DNA from: Escherichia phage vB_EcoS_I14
Length of the DNA stretch: 64,000 nt
Sequence record: PP892525.1
Reading direction: 5' to 3' (one strand)
Made by a program: the position numbers and the translations under genes. Below, piece after piece: positions 397 through 52,614 of this stretch. The notes beneath the pieces were generated by a model. It worked only from the letters and a program-made list of their open reading frames with translations. It was not told where the DNA came from and made no database searches. The first letter of the stretch is position 1; every line of letters begins with the position of its first letter.

Positions 397-524
397 TATA
401 GCCACCCCGCCATAGCTGCTAACCAAAAACCTACGAAGATTAGGAATAATACAAAACCAAATCCGTAAATATTAATCCACGCTTCGTACACTTCTCCACG
501 CCTGTTCTTTCTTTTATTTGACAT
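396..524 (-). CDS. mini membrane peptide, 42 aa (hypothetical, below ORF-track cutoff)
   Basis: Hand translation of - strand: MSNKRKNRRGEVYEAWINIYGFGFVLFLIFVGFWLAAMAGWL; basic N-terminus then hydrophobic helix; GGAG about 10 nt upstream of ATG; stop overlaps next start. Confidence 0.3.
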   Translation of the reverse strand: MSNKRKNRRGEVYEAWINIYGFGFVLFLIFVGFWLAAMAGWL

Positions 525-589
525 ATCTTTTATGCTCCTATGAGTCTGGTATTTGACATATCTTTTATGCTCCTATGAGTCTGGTATTT
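520..589. repeat. perfect 35-bp tandem duplication (2 head-to-tail copies)
   Basis: gacatatcttttatgctcctatgagtctggtattt repeated exactly; on the - strand each copy carries GGAG + ATG, so the initiation region of the 396..524 ORF is duplicated (upstream copy gives a 9-codon mini-ORF). Confidence 0.85.
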
Positions 590-722
590 GGAATACCCTA
601 GCAATTGCAGTGATTAGTATAAATATTCTTATTACACCTTCCCTAGTGTCTTGTGTGGCATCCTGGACTAATTCTGCGCTAGGATTATCTTAAGTGGTGA
701 TAGTTACTAAGGTCGTTTTTAC

Positions 723-956
723 TTAGAAAACTCCCTCACATGTATTCCCTTCAGTAAAGTAGCTTACGGGGGCCCAAAAAGACCCATAGGCCATAATTGG
801 TGACACCAAAAACATATCCCCTTTCCTATCAAAAACATTAGCCTTATATTTCACATGATCTTGTACATAGTAGGCCTCACATTTAATATCTTTAGGACCA
901 AAAGTAGAGCAAGCCGAAAGAAGTACCACTGCCATAGCTAAAAATAATTTTTTCAT
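723..956 (-). CDS. llp: lytic-conversion lipoprotein Llp (receptor-blocking superinfection exclusion)
   Basis: 77-aa ORF with signal peptide and lipobox (LLSAC); divergently placed next to the 640-aa receptor-binding protein gene, as in T5 llp-oad locus; length matches T5 Llp precursor (recalled). Confidence 0.8.
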   Translation of the reverse strand: MKKLFLAMAVVLLSACSTFGPKDIKCEAYYVQDHVKYKANVFDRKGDMFLVSPIMAYGSFWAPVSYFTEGNTCEGVF

Positions 957-984
957 TTACATTCTCCTCTATTTAATTTATAAT
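956..984 (+). promoter_or_regulatory. candidate sigma70-like promoter upstream of pb5 gene (TTTACA-17-TATAAT)
   Basis: Hexamers with 17-nt spacer in AT-rich divergent region; -35 overlaps llp start codon. Confidence 0.3.
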
Positions 985-987
985 ACT

Positions 988-1016
988 ATTATACAGAATT
1001 ATAGCAATATAGGCAA
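988..1016 (-). promoter_or_regulatory. candidate promoter for llp (TTGCCT-17-TATAAT on - strand)
   Basis: Reverse complement of 988..1016 gives -35 TTGCCT, 17-nt spacer, -10 TATAAT, about 30 nt upstream of llp ATG. Confidence 0.4.
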
Positions 1017-1035
1017 TTAAATTTTTGGAGAACTT

Positions 1036-46656: not shown

Positions 46657-46899
46657 TTACGATTCCTTGAGCAAAGAAGCAAGTTCAGCATAGACTTTAT
46701 CTAACTCAAAGCCGATGCGAAGAGACACGTTAGTTTTCCGTTGTTTAAGTAACCACTCGGATATGTTAGGGATGCCAGCTAATCTATGTGGTACCACCCT
46801 ACATAGCTTTTCCGAAGTGTCGTAAACAGGAACTTTACGTTCTTTTACTGGGAACTTCCTTGTTTCCCATTTTTTATTCTTCACTGTCATTTCTAGCAC
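46657..46899 (-). CDS. hypothetical protein
   Basis: 80 aa ORF overlapping 3' end of large ATPase gene. Confidence 0.4.
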   Translation of the reverse strand: MLEMTVKNKKWETRKFPVKERKVPVYDTSEKLCRVVPHRLAGIPNISEWLLKQRKTNVSLRIGFELDKVYAELASLLKES

Positions 46900-49663
46900 C
46901 TAGCTCTGCCATTGCTTCATCATGCATATGTTTCTCCTCATCAGTCATAAACTTATACGGGATTGGCATACATTCGATTTTACAATAGGTTCTGTACCAG
47001 TCTACAATATTCTCCGTGTTCATATCCTTACCAATACCCATCATACCAAGATACATTCTGGCATATTTTGGGTTAGCACTCTGACCTGTTTTAAGGAAGA
47101 AATCTTTCTTCTTACCTTTCAGAGCTTCTATGAATGGTTTGATAGTGACATTTGAGCACTTCTTAATATCTTCCCAGAACATCTCGTGCATTTTATGGAA
47201 GAATGCCGCTCGATCATTCGGTTTATCCTTGATATACTGCTCAACATGCTCAACTGTTACATCTTTAATAGACTCAAGATGATAATAGCGAACAAGAAGT
47301 AGTTTAGCTTCATACGCATCTGCATGACGTGGAGCACAATAATCAGGAGTTGAATACAAAATAGCTTTGATTCGCTCTTCCGTATATTCTTTTCCTGCAC
47401 CTTCGATAGTTCCCCAGCTTTCACTGAAAATATCAATAGTTGCACCCTGATCAAGCAAGTAATAACGTAAAGTACTAGTATAGTTCCTAGATTCCAGCTC
47501 CCTACGACGTGCGTATAATTGCTGTGCTAACTCCAGCCAACCTTCATCAATGTTATACTGTTCAGAACCTGCGGAGAATCCACTCGTAGATTTATCAATA
47601 AAATAATAAATGTTCTGGGCACCACGGTCGCGCCTGATTGCTTGGAAACGCATGTTTGGCGCTTGGTTGCTAGTTCTAGTAATAACGAATACGTTATCAA
47701 AATAGTTGAAGTCAACACCACTCGTTACGGATGGACTACATAATAAGCAATCAATTTGTTGGTCAATTAACTCATTAGTTGTGTAATCCAGAATACGTCG
47801 AATATCTACATCAGACGTAGAGTTTGAGTGGATTTCCTTAACTAACGCACCCGTATTACGACGCAACGCCATGCCCTTCTCATTCAGTTCATCCGGCCCA
47901 CAGTCAGATACTAGGATAGATTTCTCCCCCATCTCTAGAGATGTCTGAAGCGCAACCCAAATACTGGATTCATCAGGGAACTCATAAGCATGAGCTTTTG
48001 ACAGCATTTTTCGGTGATGATTATAAAATGCAACCGGTTTATCAAACTCAATCAAGGAACCATATGCTTCAATTGTTTCTGCACTAATATCACCATCAGA
48101 TAATATAATGATTTTTGCAGTTGCAAGAATATCCCGAAGAACCTGAATGCATTCACGACGTTGTTTAACAACCGGGGCGAATAGTAGGTCATTCATTACA
48201 GCATCACATTCATCGATAAAGATTGCATCAATTTGACCAATAAAACTCTTGAACTTATGCAAAGAGTGAATAGTTGTGGACATACGGTCAATAGCACCAC
48301 GCTTAAAATTAAGCATATCTACAGACTTATCATATTGTCCTGCACTAAATTTCTTAGCATTTGAAGACACCAGTGCTCTAGTATTGGTAATTGCTAAGAA
48401 ATTACCTTTAATAACTCCCGAATCTAACCAACGCACAACCGCCGTGGTTTTACCTGTACCTAGACTTGCTTTTACAAAAGTCATATAACCTTCTGGTGGC
48501 ACAGTATTTAATTTCAAGAAGTTATCAGTTTCTAGGGAGTTAGTTTCTAGCTTTTTAAGTGGAATACCTTTTAAAACATCAGGTATATCGCGTTTAGAAT
48601 TATTAACAAACGCTTTCAGAGCCTGTTTACGACCGTTATTAAAGTAATCTTGAATATTACGACTATTATCTTTAGTTGCAATATATTCTGATAAGGCTGG
48701 GCGGATTTCTTTTTCTAGCCATGCAAAATCAACACCATCCTCTAAAGCCCTGTGATAGAGTTTAGGAATAATACGTAGATACACTCCATCCTCAGCTTCT
48801 TCTAGTTCGCTGATAGTTTCTTCTACTTTATCAGAGGCAGCTTTTTTACCCTTAATTTGGTCGAGTAAAGAGTAAAACTCCTCCTTAAACTCACCTCTAG
48901 TTGTTTCATAGTCAACCAGATTATTTGGTAAATTTACTTTAGAACCTTTAACAAATACCAGACGTGAAGCACCCTCCGCCTTAAACGGATCTACTATACC
49001 ATCGGTAAATAACGGATCTGCAAAATAATGGAGCTGTACGGAAGAGTAATAAGCTAAGTCGGCAATATCAAAGCCATACTTTTGTCTACTACTTTCGTTG
49101 ATAGATGTAAATAAGAATTTGATTTGACCCTGAGTTACTTTAACATTAGATTCTAGTATTAAGTGCATTCGGATACCTGGTTTTAGCCCAGCCGAAGATG
49201 ATGCATGAGCGATAAACCCTGCATCAAGAGGAAACATATCCTCACTAATACTATTTAACATTCTAATAATATGTCGAGCCATACCAACAAGATCAAACTT
49301 GTTACAACCACCTGTATCTACAATACCATCCACGTCCATTGCAATTATATGACTTGGGTTAGATACATTAAAGTTGCCCTTCTTACGTCGCACATTATTT
49401 TTAGGTGCAAGACATCGACCTCGTACCGCAACGATATGAGGGTCAGACGTTAAACGCCTCATAAGAGGGAGCATTTCTACTAGGGTTTGAGGATCAACTT
49501 CATCAATTACATCAAACTTGAAGGGCATTGAAGCTGGTTTACCTTCAGGATGCTTTGAGGAAAATCTTTTAGCAAAAAGATAGTCTTCTGCTTTAACTTC
49601 TCGCCAAATGCCTGTGGCTAAGTCGCGATGAAATCCTGCATGACCTTGTAGGATTGAGAACAC
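46874..49663 (-). CDS. large P-loop NTPase (helicase/replication-initiator-like)
   Basis: Walker A (GTGKTT) and Walker B-like (IFIDECD) motifs; track start is TTG 49741; GTG 49663 preceded by AGGAG is the more plausible start (about 929 aa). Confidence 0.6.
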   Translation of the reverse strand: MFSILQGHAGFHRDLATGIWREVKAEDYLFAKRFSSKHPEGKPASMPFKFDVIDEVDPQTLVEMLPLMRRLTSDPHIVAVRGRCLAPKNNVRRKKGNFNVSNPSHIIAMDVDGIVDTGGCNKFDLVGMARHIIRMLNSISEDMFPLDAGFIAHASSSAGLKPGIRMHLILESNVKVTQGQIKFLFTSINESSRQKYGFDIADLAYYSSVQLHYFADPLFTDGIVDPFKAEGASRLVFVKGSKVNLPNNLVDYETTRGEFKEEFYSLLDQIKGKKAASDKVEETISELEEAEDGVYLRIIPKLYHRALEDGVDFAWLEKEIRPALSEYIATKDNSRNIQDYFNNGRKQALKAFVNNSKRDIPDVLKGIPLKKLETNSLETDNFLKLNTVPPEGYMTFVKASLGTGKTTAVVRWLDSGVIKGNFLAITNTRALVSSNAKKFSAGQYDKSVDMLNFKRGAIDRMSTTIHSLHKFKSFIGQIDAIFIDECDAVMNDLLFAPVVKQRRECIQVLRDILATAKIIILSDGDISAETIEAYGSLIEFDKPVAFYNHHRKMLSKAHAYEFPDESSIWVALQTSLEMGEKSILVSDCGPDELNEKGMALRRNTGALVKEIHSNSTSDVDIRRILDYTTNELIDQQIDCLLCSPSVTSGVDFNYFDNVFVITRTSNQAPNMRFQAIRRDRGAQNIYYFIDKSTSGFSAGSEQYNIDEGWLELAQQLYARRRELESRNYTSTLRYYLLDQGATIDIFSESWGTIEGAGKEYTEERIKAILYSTPDYCAPRHADAYEAKLLLVRYYHLESIKDVTVEHVEQYIKDKPNDRAAFFHKMHEMFWEDIKKCSNVTIKPFIEALKGKKKDFFLKTGQSANPKYARMYLGMMGIGKDMNTENIVDWYRTYCKIECMPIPYKFMTDEEKHMHDEAMAELGARNDSEE

Positions 49664-50162
49664 AACAATACTCCTGTGTTGGAAATGAAATAAGTTTTCT
49701 TTAGGACTATTCAGAAAGAATAGAACAACTGTTACTGTCAATTTCTCAACAAATTAATTGCAAATACTGAAGTGGGGTGGCAACTTCCACTTTCACGCTA
49801 CACTGCCGCTTCACTATACCGCACAAATCCTTGAGGATGGCCGCTAAGCCAGATTTGCTCACCTAATGCTTCATGTACTAGCTCATACTAGATGTAGTAT
49901 ACCTTACGTCATCACTTCTCAGAGTTTTTCACTCTTCCCGTCTCACTTCACAACCACCTCACACTAGGTTGCTTCGAGGCCTTACCAGGGTTCCTACGGG
50001 ATGTAGATCGCTAAGTATTCTATTAATTATTTGTTTAAAAACTAACACGTAACAGTTAAAACAACCCTTAATGGGGCAGCCTAACTGTTCCGTATCGCGG
50101 ATTGTAAACAAGAAAAATTAGCAAAATCAATTTTTACTAATGTCTCTCAATTCAATATAAAT

Positions 50163-50191
50163 ATTATATCAAGATTTTGGGCATCCTGCAA
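50163..50191 (-). promoter_or_regulatory. early sigma70 promoter about 500 nt upstream of the large ATPase gene (TTGCAG-17-TATAAT)
   Basis: Reverse complement: ttgcag gatgcccaaaatcttga tataat; transcript would run through the ORF-free region 49664..50160. Confidence 0.5.
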
Positions 50192-50282
50192 GTAAAATTT
50201 TCCGGACGGTGCTATCATTGGTCTTGAGTACGGATAAAACCGAGCCAAAATGACTCGGTAATCAGAGTTCAGCTAGTAAAAA

Positions 50283-50675
50283 TCATTCATCATTTAGGCC
50301 TGGAACATAGATCCCAACACGGTTTAATTGTTCTTTAGCTTCTTTGAGAATATCTGGAGTGTACTCCCAAATATCATCTTCCACCTGTAAAAGATGGGGC
50401 GAACAACCGTCATCCGGCACACGACATATGGCCAAACCACGTGGATGGAACAAAGAGAAATTTAGGGCAACAATTAAACCCATAGCAGACAATTCATTCC
50501 AATCCAATTCCCATTCCCCCGCGTAGCCGGATAGGAAAACACCAACACAGGGATCATCTATTTGCTGCTCCGGAAAAGTGAGGGAGGCTTGTCTTACCCC
50601 CAACCAACGTTGTAGCAGCTTCTCCGCACGTTTCACCAAACTAGGGTCAATCTGACGCCAATATACTTGTTCCAT
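50283..50675 (-). CDS. hypothetical protein (paralog of 50685..51113)
   Basis: 130 aa; shares CxG..V..G..EW.L.W.EL..MGL..ALN..LF.P pattern with adjacent ORF. Confidence 0.5.
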   Translation of the reverse strand: MEQVYWRQIDPSLVKRAEKLLQRWLGVRQASLTFPEQQIDDPCVGVFLSGYAGEWELDWNELSAMGLIVALNFSLFHPRGLAICRVPDDGCSPHLLQVEDDIWEYTPDILKEAKEQLNRVGIYVPGLNDE

Positions 50676-50684
50676 TCTGCCTCC

Positions 50685-51113
50685 TTAAGCAGTTAAACCT
50701 GGGATCATATACCCGAAACGGCGAAGTTTTTGAATCCCCTCATTTACTTCTTCCGGTGAGTAAGACCAACCATAACGTTCATTAATCTGAAAACCAGGAG
50801 ATTCACTAGTTTTATAGTTAACAACGAGGCGGTGCTTAGCAGGCATAAACAGCTTATAATTTAACGCAAAAACTAAGCCCATTTCGTCTAACTCTTTCCA
50901 GCCCACAATCTCTTCAAGACCATCCTCTACCTGAACAATTAAACCAATACAGGGAGCCTCATCAATATCATCTTTAAAAGCAAAGGAGATTTCGTTATTC
51001 TCACACCATATTTTCAAAGAGTTAATAGCCTCATTATACAGGCTAGCTGGGAGGGTACGCCAAAAGTTAACCAAAATTGGGTTAGCCTCTTTAGAGAAGA
51101 CATTATTAAACAT
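50685..51113 (-). CDS. hypothetical protein (paralog of 50283..50675)
   Basis: 142 aa; conserved CIGLIVQVEDG...GWKELDEMGLVFALNYKLFMP block aligned with neighbour. Confidence 0.5.
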   Translation of the reverse strand: MFNNVFSKEANPILVNFWRTLPASLYNEAINSLKIWCENNEISFAFKDDIDEAPCIGLIVQVEDGLEEIVGWKELDEMGLVFALNYKLFMPAKHRLVVNYKTSESPGFQINERYGWSYSPEEVNEGIQKLRRFGYMIPGLTA

Positions 51114-51115
51114 AT

Positions 51116-51622
51116 TTACACCTTAAATTGTTGTAGGGCTTTACACATTTCAAGATCTGGACTAAATTCTAACATATAGCTAACAGCTTTTAAATCTTGA
51201 AGATTTATTCCAGTCCTACCGTTGACTATAACCGTTGGATACTGATACATCATAGCACCCGCATCATCAAGCACACACCAATGTTTGAGCTTATGCTTTT
51301 CAACGAAGCGAAGAACAGAATTGCCCCTAGATAATCCACCCCCAGTAAAATCCGTTGTACCAAGAAAACGATCGATAAGGCCTAATCCGGTCATAATCTG
51401 AACGTTCTCCATCTCATTTCTGACAGAGAACCAAGATGATACTCCAACAATCATTATCGGAGAAGGACGAATAAAGTCCTGAAAAGCCTTGAGAAGCGGT
51501 TTGAAAACCCAGTCACTTCCAAAGAAAATCTTTTCATTATCAGGTGCATGATGGTGGGAGATGCTCGAATTGAGCACCCCATCAATATCTAGAAAAATAA
51601 TTGGAGTATTACTTATTTCCAT
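51116..51622 (-). CDS. HAD-superfamily phosphatase (nucleotidase/polynucleotide-phosphatase-like)
   Basis: 168 aa; N-terminal HAD motif I (IIFLDIDGVLNS) and C-terminal DD motif (WCVLDDAG). Confidence 0.6.
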   Translation of the reverse strand: MEISNTPIIFLDIDGVLNSSISHHHAPDNEKIFFGSDWVFKPLLKAFQDFIRPSPIMIVGVSSWFSVRNEMENVQIMTGLGLIDRFLGTTDFTGGGLSRGNSVLRFVEKHKLKHWCVLDDAGAMMYQYPTVIVNGRTGINLQDLKAVSYMLEFSPDLEMCKALQQFKV

Positions 51623-51818
51623 TTTTGTTCCTTTCTAAGAACGTATCATACTCAACCGTATCAACATATATAACACCATAGTCATCGGATTTATAGTCCA
51701 TTTCCCACAGCTCACAGCGATAGCACCAACTACCATCTGCCCATACAAATATATCATCGGGATGTGTATAAACAGATTTAACTATGGACATATCTGTTTC
51801 CCTTGCTTCTCGACACAT
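51609..51818 (-). CDS. hypothetical protein
   Basis: 69 aa ORF overlapping both neighbours. Confidence 0.35.
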   Translation of the reverse strand: MCREARETDMSIVKSVYTHPDDIFVWADGSWCYRCELWEMDYKSDDYGVIYVDTVEYDTFLERNKNGNK

Positions 51819-52614
51819 AAGGTCTACCCTCTAAATGAGCTTCTACACGAGCAATAAAATCAGGGTCACTAAAAGCATCTACCGCACCTTTACTCCAGTA
51901 AGGGATACCGCGTTCTTCCAACTGGTACATCTCACTACGAGTCATACCTTGATAGCCCGGTTCTGCTGCGAGGGCACTATCATAGTAGTTAACAACCATA
52001 AGTTTCGCAGCAGTCAAATTAAGAACAGGAAATAATTCCCAGTAGAAGTTAATTACTTGGTTAGAGCAACCAACCACAATGATCATATCTTGACTGGTAA
52101 TACCATCAAAAACATTATACATTTCTGCGTATGCAGGAGCATGTTCTCCAAAGAAGATTACATTAGGTTTAACCCATTTATAATCATCTGGATCAATAGA
52201 ATTATACCCTACATCAATAATCCGTTTATTGCTACTATTGTAGCTATCAGCTACAACAACCTCTTTTAAATATCCGTGAATGTGCAGAATGTCACTATGT
52301 GGAACGCCAGCACGCTCAATAAGGTCATCAACGTTGGTAGTCAAGTTTACTACTTGACCTGGATATTGTTTATACCATTCACCAATACGCAAATGTGCAA
52401 GATTGGGTTCAACAGTTTTTAGCTCTTCACGACGTTTGTTGTAAAACATATGGGTTTTATGGTAAAAATTACCACGAAAGGCATGAATATTACATACTTC
52501 TTCTAGATCATAATCATCCCACAATGCTTTACCACTAGCAGTATCAGTACGAAAAGCTCGTACACCACTTTCAACACTCAAACCTGCACCGCTAATAATA
52601 ATTACCCTACGCAT
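51778..52614 (-). CDS. Sir2-family (sirtuin-like) NAD-dependent protein
   Basis: 278 aa; sirtuin Rossmann motifs GAGLSVESGVRAFR, TTNVDDL, IHGY, VVGCSN. Confidence 0.65.
   Translation of the reverse strand: MRRVIIISGAGLSVESGVRAFRTDTASGKALWDDYDLEEVCNIHAFRGNFYHKTHMFYNKRREELKTVEPNLAHLRIGEWYKQYPGQVVNLTTNVDDLIERAGVPHSDILHIHGYLKEVVVADSYNSSNKRIIDVGYNSIDPDDYKWVKPNVIFFGEHAPAYAEMYNVFDGITSQDMIIVVGCSNQVINFYWELFPVLNLTAAKLMVVNYYDSALAAEPGYQGMTRSEMYQLEERGIPYWSKGAVDAFSDPDFIARVEAHLEGRPYVSRSKGNRYVHS

Follow-up and report, generated by a model that had tools for sequence, protein, structure and literature searches.

The DNA analysed here is a 64,000-nucleotide (nt) stretch of Escherichia phage vB_EcoS_I14 (PP892525.1), referred to below as the window, and its source phage is T5-like (Tequintavirus). 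We investigated a non-coding gap of 619 base pairs (bp) on the minus strand, 49664..50282. The gap extends from the stop codon, at 50283, of an upstream gene for a protein of 130 amino acids (aa) to the GTG start codon, at 49663, of the gene T5.108, whose 929-aa product is a 'replication origin binding protein' with a helicase core. The segment 49600..50300 matches 535 phage records, nearly all of which are T5-like (Tequintavirus, Epseptimavirus and relatives). The gap is the longest stretch without a plausible gene in the window. The leader of about 500 nt that an earlier sequence-only reading had placed ahead of this large ATPase gene is confirmed in part. Two T5 records (AY543070 and AY587007) show the order found in the window, namely a terminator, a promoter, about 470 nt without annotation and then the gene, and the record of phage Lindwurm has the same gene order with the gap likewise unannotated. 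None of these three T5-type reference records contains an RNA or origin feature at the gap.

The 5' boundary of the unit is the Rho-independent terminator of the upstream operon, which is annotated as a terminator in AY543070, AY587007 and the Lindwurm record. The early promoter recognized in the sequence-only reading (50163..50191) is real and conserved. Its pattern, TTGC-N15-19-TAWAAT, was matched in 37 of 41 related loci (designated by L numbers), and T5 records annotate the equivalent site as a promoter, one of them under the name 'putative early promoter T5P32'. In three of the four exceptions an inserted HNH-type open reading frame (ORF) supplies its own promoter, and in the fourth, L038, a TTGACA-type promoter is present instead. 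An HNH-type endonuclease-like ORF is present as an insertion immediately before the leader in L008, L013 and L032 (positions 1700-2010); the usual terminator and promoter are replaced by TTTGCA-N17-TATAAT, and the leader is kept from its first hairpin on. The position of the promoter predicts a transcription start near 50157.

The upstream regions of 33 helicase homologues were aligned. Their flanks are conserved, and the centre splits into discrete, mutually unalignable sequence types, in which invariant islands such as GCTTAGCGGC survive. Separate folding of each type gave a single shared plan in at least eight sequence lineages with unalignable cores. In this plan, a 5' hairpin is followed by a conserved box (box 1), a long A-U-rich closing stem, nested long-range helices inside the stem and a small hairpin after it, with UGUUC before this last hairpin. 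The closing stem has 21–39 bp and spans 317–353 nt in every lineage, and the hairpin with the invariant sequence CUUAGCGG lies about 200 nt past the stem start. Despite the unrelated cores, the distance from box 1 to the start codon is 406–432 nt in all lineages compared. These comparisons strongly support an RNA domain that runs from box 1 to the start codon (about 430 nt) and has a core of about 330 nt closed by the A-U-rich stem. Cross-lineage alignments with MAFFT set the stems out of register; helices were therefore compared between lineages by anchored per-sequence folding or by hand, which is weaker than a structure-aware alignment. The comparative evidence indicates that a large structured RNA is present here, that it is real and apparently undescribed, and that its architecture is conserved throughout the T5-like phages. 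That the transcript is a selected, folded RNA appears highly probable from the sequences.

Statistical analyses support the fold and its strand. The closing stem is more stable than dinucleotide shuffles in seven lineages (z = −3.7 to −8.9). The sense stem is also more stable than its antisense counterpart in 7/7 lineages (−27.7 versus −5.8 kcal/mol in T5), because the 2–8 G.U pairs of each stem become C.A on the other strand. When DNA energy parameters are used, the closing stems still outperform shuffles (z = −3.3 to −11.7), but most of their energy and most of the asymmetry between sense and antisense are lost; for T5, −27.7 becomes −9.0 kcal/mol and the asymmetry is nearly gone. The dependence on G.U pairs argues for RNA over single-stranded DNA. 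For the closed domain as a whole, the z score of the minimum free energy is negative on the sense strand in 8/8 lineages (−0.8 to −5.3) and never weaker than on the antisense strand.

Covariation was analysed within two sets, type A (17 sequences including the window) and type B (an independent set of 16 sequences including T5). RNAalifold gave 131 pairs for type A, with 99.8% of the cells paired. Five of these pairs (25 cells) are changed on both sides, and 12 pairs show changes between G.U and Watson-Crick pairing only. When the partners were slid by 1–3 columns as controls, 0–1 double-sided pairs were obtained. The covariation score was 0.047, compared with at most 0.016 in the slid controls, and was reached by 0/500 shuffles. 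Type B gave 133 pairs, seven of them with double-sided changes, and its helices are at matching positions. Covariation across lineages was observed for P5 and for the UAGC, GAAAA and GUUGCCAYC hairpins. Compensatory changes within and between lineages, together with the sense-specific G.U pairs, thus support well the regulatory RNA or long structured leader that the sequence-only reading had offered as one of its two alternatives. The inverted repeats that it had described as short are present and much longer than noted, with a 34-nt imperfect repeat whose arms lie 265 nt apart.

The positions of the individual elements are given in Table 1. The arms of P1 vary by lineage, being UUAGUAAAA/UUUUGCUAA in the window, UUAGACAAG/UUUGUCUAA in L026 and UUAGGCGUUU/AAGCGCCUAA in L029. 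The pairs of P2a are invariant, and it has no support from covariation. The closing stem of the window consists of 31–32 bp with 4 G.U pairs, and the energy of its duplex is −28.4 kcal/mol, whereas shuffles give −11 ± 2.8 and the antisense strand gives −17.9. Within type A, one-sided changes between G.U and A-U occur at eight of its pairs, and almost no pair is broken. An equivalent closing stem of unrelated sequence is found in T5, L044, L026, L037, L029, L038 and L025. A switch by alternative pairing of GAACAGUUA in box 1 with UAACUGUUAC was considered and dropped, because this pairing is not conserved in L022 or L026.

Inside the stem, the 3' strand of P5, GUGUAGCGU, falls within the conserved CAGUGUAG motif. 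In type A, two positions of P5 are compensatory on both sides (GC to AU or the reverse, six sequences each). Its pairs are CUACAU/GUGUAG in the window, CUGCGU/GCGCAG in L012, CUGUAU/GUACAG in L053, CUAGAA/UUCUAG in L025, CUGUGU/GCACAG in T5 and CCAUAU/GUAUGG in L044. The stem of the GUUGCCAYC hairpin changes from U-A to G-C in four type-A sequences and is AAGGGGG/CCCUU in L037, GAGG/CCUC in L025 and AGGAGGA/UCUUCCU in L053. The closing helix of the 5' sub-domain has one double-sided change, and its GCAACC/GGUUGU hairpin is replaced by GCUAUC/GAUAGC in L053, ACAAUC/GAUUGU in L026 and GCGGCA/UGCCG in L037. The first pair of the GAAAA hairpin is compensatory (G-C in 11 and A-U in 6 type-A sequences), and the stem is CCG/CGG, GGGG/CCCU or GGUC/GACC in other lineages.

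The UAGC hairpin, with the invariant CUUAGCGG at 49841..49848 on the minus strand, was found in 11/11 copies examined, including that of Aeromonas phage TS3. The sequence of its outer helix is different in each of the 11 copies, its inner pairs covary (G-C, A-U, C-G), and the complementarity of the outer helix exceeds that of shuffles (Fisher combined p = 2e-5). The invariant loop UAGCG(G) resembles CS-6 (TAGCGT) in the ssoA loop of rolling-circle plasmids, a likeness that may be a coincidence. After the closing stem, the terminal hairpin covaries as CUUUCC/GGAAAG in L026, CUAUC/GAUAG in L025 and CCUG/CAGG in L029. The hairpin that would pair the Shine-Dalgarno sequence of the helicase gene has a counterpart, UUCUUC/GGAGAA, in L025 and is not conserved everywhere.

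Table 1. Features of the T5.108 locus, with positions in the window and elements of the RNA named as in the text
Feature	Position	Strand	Remarks
Rho-independent terminator of upstream operon	50232..50262	−	ACCGAGUC/GGCUCGGU and U run, read from sequence
Early sigma-70 promoter	50163..50191	−	TTGCAG-N17-TATAAT, TG extended −10
Untranslated transcript (leader), about 494 nt, holding the predicted structured RNA	49664..50157	−	
P1, 5'-terminal hairpin, 16–23 bp, then U-rich tract	50108..50150	−	In every lineage
Conserved box 1, ACGGAACAGUUAGGCUGCCCCA	50072..50093	−	Sequence kept in types A and B, L044, L025, L026, L037, L053
P2a, small hairpin by box 1, AGGCUGCCC/GGGUUGUUU	50059..50082	−	RNAalifold, types A and B
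Closing stem, 5' arm	50025..50058	−	Pairs with 49726..49759
P4 (GAAUACU) and P5 (GCG..CUACAU), 5' strands	50001..50020	−	Pair with 49795..49803 and 49762..49768
5' sub-domain, three-way junction with GCAACC/GGUUGU hairpin and CUAG...AGGU loop	49937..50000	−	
Small hairpin AGAGU-GAAAA-ACUCU, then conserved GAGAAGUG	49913..49935	−	
Hairpin CAUCUAGU...AUUAGGUG	49860..49894	−	RNAalifold, type A; invariant pairs, prediction only
UAGC hairpin	49823..49858	−	Outer CAAAUCU/GGAUUUG, 3' bulge, inner GGCU/GGCC closing UAGC tetraloop
P5 (GUGUAGCGU) and P4 (AGUAUUU), 3' strands	49762..49803	−	
GUUGCCAYC-loop hairpin	49770..49792	−	Branches between P5 and P4 3' strands
Closing stem, 3' arm	49726..49759	−	Pairs with 50025..50058
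Terminal hairpin CUAUUC-UUUCU-GAAUAG, UGUUC before it	49707..49723	−	
Hairpin UUCC-AACACA-GGAG pairing helicase Shine-Dalgarno	49671..49684	−	RNAalifold, type A; tentative
T5.108, 929-aa 'replication origin binding protein' gene	46874..49663	−	GTG start; PHROG 3712

The coding potential of the region was also examined. The statement of the sequence-only reading that no ORF exceeds a few codons is false if taken literally, since stop-to-stop stretches on the sense strand reach 52 codons and ORFs with TTG or GTG starts encode 50 and 38 aa. However, no conserved ORF was found: the longest sense open stretches have 40–79 codons and differ between lineages, and the 50-aa ORF is interrupted by TAG in T5 and by TGA in L026. 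Peptide matches between lineages fall in several frames and on both strands, as expected of conserved nucleotide blocks. A protein-coding gene conserved in relatives, which that reading had weighed against its own proposal, did not emerge from the comparison of ORFs across lineages, and a missed gene was rejected because no ORF is kept in length and frame. The purine richness claimed for the whole leader did not hold (53.5% purine versus 52.9 ± 2.5% on the neighbouring transcribed strand), but a mild skew was found in a 257-nt core (58.4% purine and GC skew 0.23, in the top 7–8% of windows). The sole longer gap in the window without an ORF of at least 80 aa, 416..1035, has a 77-aa ORF on the minus strand (723..956). 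With genes of opposite orientation on either side, it probably represents a divergent promoter region that includes a small gene.

A search with the Rfam 15 covariance models, as suggested in the earlier reading, gave no match at the gathering threshold in the whole window and 15 related loci. With a relaxed threshold, the segment 49300..50700 gave one chance match, to sR17, a C/D-box RNA of archaea (17.6 bits, with 36 as the threshold, E = 0.28). By the Rfam models, the RNA is not a member of GOLLD, ROOL, HEARO, OLE, 6S, RNase P, tmRNA or any riboswitch class, and no tRNA or tmRNA genes were found. The literature searched contains no description of this region, no map of T5 transcripts that extends over it and no transcript-end data for T5. 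In a published survey of structured RNAs from viral contigs (PMC10690425), most elements are about 67 nt long, and neither helicase, origin, Tequintavirus nor Demerecviridae was found among its terms.

A tblastn search with the first 300 residues of the helicase matched 905 phage records across Demerecviridae. A long, ORF-free and promoter-driven region precedes the helicase gene even in Aeromonas and Vibrio relatives, in which the protein identity is 25–34%. In Aeromonas phage TS3, the gene follows an ORF-free stretch of about 1.3 kb that has a promoter-like site at one end and a strong intrinsic terminator at the other. Of the three UUAGCGG motifs in this stretch, two are in clear hairpins, and the stretch also has a long-range stem of 27 bp (17 + 10 bp perfect). 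The Vibrio phages D360 and L057 have a promoter, 480–570 non-coding nt and two terminators ahead of the gene, and in L057 an additional ORF lies between the non-coding unit and the helicase gene. Long non-coding regions are also found before the helicase gene in Achelous, JSF12 and SJ1, and in L038 a consensus promoter lies between the RNA domain and the gene. The association with the helicase gene is family-wide, whereas the transcriptional fusion to it is not. A scan of genome and viral contigs for GAGAAGTG-N55-75-CTTAGCGG gave essentially chance matches besides the known T5-like contigs; it is uninformative because 16 specified bases are too few.

The core types do not track the helicase. 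The helicases of L012 (type A) and L013 (type B) are both 95% identical to that of the window, and the Epseptimavirus Stitch has a type-B core as in T5. These distributions suggest that the RNA core has been exchanged like a cassette by recombination between genera. An optional module of 97 nt, flanked by a direct repeat of TTTTTCTT, occurs after the first hairpin (equivalent to about 50109). It was found in 51 phage records, among them L002, L005, L024, L031 and L044, always as a single copy at this locus; it occurs with different core types and has its own predicted hairpin, AUUUACGG/CCGUAAAU. The records of D360 (L041, 1808-2432) and Achelous (L040, 2019-2189) place several 'hypothetical proteins' of 29–56 aa in the non-coding region. 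The helicase coding sequence of D360 is annotated from 2636, and a conserved MF..IL start is found at 2501. The small proteins and the annotated D360 start are probably annotation artefacts.

The product of T5.108 matches Pfam Herpes_ori_bp at residues 394–533 and has a UL9-like SF2 helicase core. Wong et al. 2013 studied this protein as the 'D2' bipolar SF2 helicase and proposed that it has a role in initiation (PMC3632103). Its N-terminal 390 residues have no sequence match in Pfam or the PDB. An exhaustive phmmer search with the N-terminal domain gave 81 relatives; in the remote ones, with E values from 1e-7 to 1e-3, the alignment covers residues ~30–250. Among ten remote relatives scanned against Pfam, eight have VapE-like, DUF5906, D5_N or Pox_D5 helicase domains at the C-terminus, and one remote relative (P0045) has PriCT_2 after the matched segment. 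In primase-helicases, the archaeo-eukaryotic primase (AEP) domain sits at such an N-terminal position. In the family alignment, a DxD motif (D110 and D112) and SSSAG...H167 are conserved. Because the N-terminal relatives precede helicase domains and both motifs are kept, the T5.108 product is probably a primase fused to a UL9-like helicase. An additional homologue search for the N-terminal domain gave two fragments only, and a single-sequence AlphaFold model of the domain was unusable (predicted local distance difference test score, pLDDT, of 34). The probable primase-helicase nature of the product of 48900..49663 on the minus strand (residues ~1–250) is absent from most records. The operon on the other side of the gap (50283..52614, minus strand) encodes a Sir2-family protein, a HAD_SAK_2 protein ('Swiss Army Knife' RNA-repair-type HAD) and two DUF7415 proteins. 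It is set off from the RNA unit by the terminator, no link to the RNA was found, and its synteny is lost in distant relatives.

From its conserved place, we lean towards a functional tie of the RNA to the helicase or the replication module. Because the link to the helicase survives as separate transcription units, a role together with the protein or with the DNA of the locus is favoured over pure translation control. One feature expected of an R-loop or primer-RNA origin is present, in that a promoter is directed into the region and yields a predicted untranslated transcript of 494 nt. A potential substrate of RNase III is likewise present, with 31–32 pairs here and 21–39 in seven other lineages. 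The T5 origins were mapped 'near the centre' of the genome (bioRxiv 10.1101/866236). The locus lies at about 48.5% of the T5 genome, a position consistent with such origins.

In the mechanism that we favour, the early transcript would fold co-transcriptionally. The 30-bp closing stem would be processed, probably by RNase III as happens with pre-rRNA stems, and its cleavage would free the folded core and detach it from the helicase mRNA. The invariant loops (CUUAGCGG, GUUGCCAYC and GAGAAGUG) may then let the folded RNA recruit or position the initiator at its own template, and the transcript, possibly as an R-loop, would mark or prime the first origin near the genome centre. In the lineage of the window (Markadamsvirinae), where the structure is on the helicase mRNA and the ribosome-binding region is paired, it may also tune helicase synthesis. 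A mechanism of this R-loop, primer or loading-site kind is put forward tentatively, as possible rather than probable.

Several observations weigh against this reading. The function is inferred from anatomy and synteny. There is no GC-skew switch at the site, and the cumulative extremes follow gene orientation. The R-loop propensity is weak, with a GC skew only in the top 8% of windows and no G clusters. The RNA is separated from the helicase gene by a terminator or promoter in some lineages, which speaks against translation control as the conserved role but is not in itself proof of a role in replication. The covariation within types reflects few independent events, because the sequences within each type are closely related, and by-hand or per-sequence folding of cross-lineage helices leans towards finding pairs. 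The Vibrio-phage regions share no motif with the T5-type RNA and have folding z scores of +2.2 to −5.0, and the D360-type region folds no better than shuffles (z = +2). Without a shared motif or excess folding, the D360-type region may be non-homologous to the T5-type RNA.

A purely cis-regulatory 5' leader, which would control the stability and translation of the helicase mRNA with no role at the DNA level, is a doubtful alternative. It would act by masking the ribosome binding site and through the cutting of the long stem by RNase III, and the helicase or another early protein might bind the UAGC hairpin, as with the lambda N leader or the operators of T4 genes 32 and 43. The window and most Markadamsvirinae have neither a terminator nor a promoter between the RNA and the GTG codon, the closing stem amounts to 31 bp of double-stranded RNA, and a 5'-terminal hairpin is typical of stabilised mRNAs. 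In types A and B, the Shine-Dalgarno hairpin is predicted, as is a pairing between box 1 and the spacer that precedes GUG; both are invariant there, and both also bear on a riboswitch or attenuator. These pairings are not conserved in other lineages, that of box 1 with the initiation region not beyond types A and B and L037, and the RNA is uncoupled from the gene in some. The promoter in L038, the terminators in TS3 and in D360 and L057, and the extra ORF in L057 indicate that translation coupling is not the conserved feature. Moreover, a multi-junction fold of about 330 nt with several invariant loops far exceeds the needs of known translational operators.

The replication reading can be extended to a more specific form, in which the RNA and the primase-helicase would make up a replication-initiation ribonucleoprotein, with the folded RNA as the specificity subunit of the origin. 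This extension is speculative and rather unlikely to hold. The RNA would be made in cis, excised at the long stem and bound by the initiator via the invariant loops, and it would hold an R-loop open at its own template for helicase loading. Alternatively, the 3' end of the RNA might be the first primer for the AEP-type primase-polymerase domain. If correct, such a complex would represent an RNA-defined origin in a classical lytic double-stranded DNA phage, and it would explain how the core is exchanged between phages like a cassette yet keeps its place at the initiator gene.

A stand-alone, trans-acting non-coding RNA or ribonucleoprotein scaffold, whose place by the helicase gene is historical, would suit the size, the multiple junctions and the invariant loops of a complex folded RNA. 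Such an RNA might be a decoy for host defence or for an RNA-binding protein, or an oligomeric 'ornate' RNA like ROOL and GOLLD. Discrete promoter-to-terminator units are found in TS3 and the D360-type phages, the core types are exchanged between genera independently of the helicase, as under pressure for diversification or exchange, and the lack of an Rfam match was once shared by other orphan large RNAs. However, the co-oriented site directly upstream of the initiator gene is kept across subfamilies, at 25–34% identity, while the other neighbours all change, and we regard this explanation as unlikely.

The other alternative of the sequence-only reading was an origin at the DNA level. In this case the pairing would act in the non-template single-stranded DNA exposed by unwinding or an R-loop, the transcript would be functionless, and the hairpins would be recognition sites for primase or helicase, as in ssiA/ssiB of RSF1010, ssoA and the OriS* hairpin (UL9). 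The proposal gains from the adjoining gene of a probable primase-helicase initiator, which is a neighbour throughout the family even where the RNA is transcribed separately, from the central genome position and from the likeness, perhaps coincidental, of the loop motif TAGCG to CS-6 of ssoA; A-T-rich tracts occur in the region as stem arms, and the strand-specific pairing would be available to DNA, since the displaced strand has the sequence of the RNA. The absence of iterons, of a UL9-type palindrome and of the GC-skew switch speaks against it. The repeat search of the region gave only two-copy families of 10–17 nt with 73–91% identity as tandem or direct repeats, and TAACAGTT has two copies in the region and 9 in the window (3.45 expected). 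An iteron-type origin as in lambda, P4, plasmid oriV or the ori of SaPI (Staphylococcus aureus pathogenicity island), for which at least three direct repeats of a 10–22 bp initiator-binding site beside an A-T-rich unwinding element were sought, was rejected. An origin of the herpesvirus oriS/oriL type (UL9) was also rejected, as no palindrome with an A-T-rich centre between inverted high-affinity UL9 boxes was found. The only local inverted repeat (50047-50058 / 50082-50093) has a G+C-rich spacer of 23 nt and is not conserved in L022 or L026. The reliance of the closing stems on G.U pairs, the weakness of the T5 stem with DNA parameters, the very extensive unwinding needed by partners up to 350 nt apart, and the conserved promoter and, in some lineages, terminator that frame the unit like a gene make a pure DNA element very unlikely. 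Finally, a recombination-prone spacer or mobile-element remnant without specific function, with terminal repeats like those of a miniature inverted-repeat transposable element, might be read from the discrete core types, the optional 97-nt insert and the homing-endonuclease genes inserted nearby in some relatives, but it is scarcely credible for a single-copy element that is always at one site, is held to a length of 406–432 nt, and has covarying internal helices and arms whose sequences differ by lineage yet still pair, through compensatory and G.U changes.

T5 is among the founding model phages, yet its origin and the way in which its initiator finds the origin have never been defined at the sequence level. 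The RNA described here has a conserved predicted fold in hundreds of sequenced T5-like phages, many of which are candidates for therapy or biocontrol. Should it act in initiation, the question of the T5 origin could be tested directly, and a new RNA-dependent origin with a UL9-like helicase would be at hand. As a regulator or a trans-acting RNA, it would enlarge by one family the small group of large structured RNAs of phages. In both cases, tiny 'hypothetical proteins', which several records place in the gap, should no longer be called there by annotation pipelines.

The T5-type RNA can be compared with several known systems. It resembles GOLLD, ROOL, HEARO, OLE and raiA in its size of several hundred nt, its multiple junctions and invariant loops, its carriage by phages and its discovery by comparative analysis. 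Unlike these RNAs, which are found with tRNA clusters or in other contexts, it is tied to one protein gene, that of the initiator helicase. With ssiA/ssiB of RSF1010 (RepB' primase), ssoA and OriS*, it shares a strand-specific fold with covarying stems and conserved loops beside a primase or helicase initiator, and the helicase core here is UL9-like, as for OriS*. However, those elements are single-stranded DNA of 40–250 nt, whereas the pairing here relies on G.U and joins partners up to 350 nt apart, and the RNA unit, unlike ssi and sso, has its own promoter and in some lineages a terminator.

A long stem that flanks a folded RNA or precedes an early gene is also found in the RNase III-processed leaders of lambda N and the T7 early mRNA and in the 16S and 23S stems of pre-rRNA. 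Like the lambda N leader, the element precedes an early essential gene as part of its 5' leader, and by analogy, cleavage would be expected to affect both the release of the folded RNA and downstream translation. The RNase III sites known from phages are local hairpins that have about 20 bp and an internal loop, whereas the stem here closes a conserved domain of 260–290 nt; it is likened to the pre-rRNA processing stems because flanking sequences pair around a folded RNA.

The ColE1 RNA II, the T4 origins (oriF/uvsY and oriG/34) and the primary origin of T7 share with the T5-type leader a strong promoter and an untranslated transcript of several hundred nt at an initiation region, within the replication module of the genome. 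A defined secondary structure, which is needed for the function of RNA II, is a further likeness to ColE1. However, no antisense promoter, such as that of the RNA I-type regulator of ColE1, was found in the T5-type leader, and its fold is much more elaborate than those of the three systems, with invariant loops. The initiator also differs, being a UL9-like SF2 helicase with a probable primase domain instead of Pol I/RNase H (ColE1) or gp59/gp41 (T4). The T5-type RNA may work like ColE1 RNA II or the transcript-dependent origins of T4 and T7, and the resemblance extends only to this possible mode of action.

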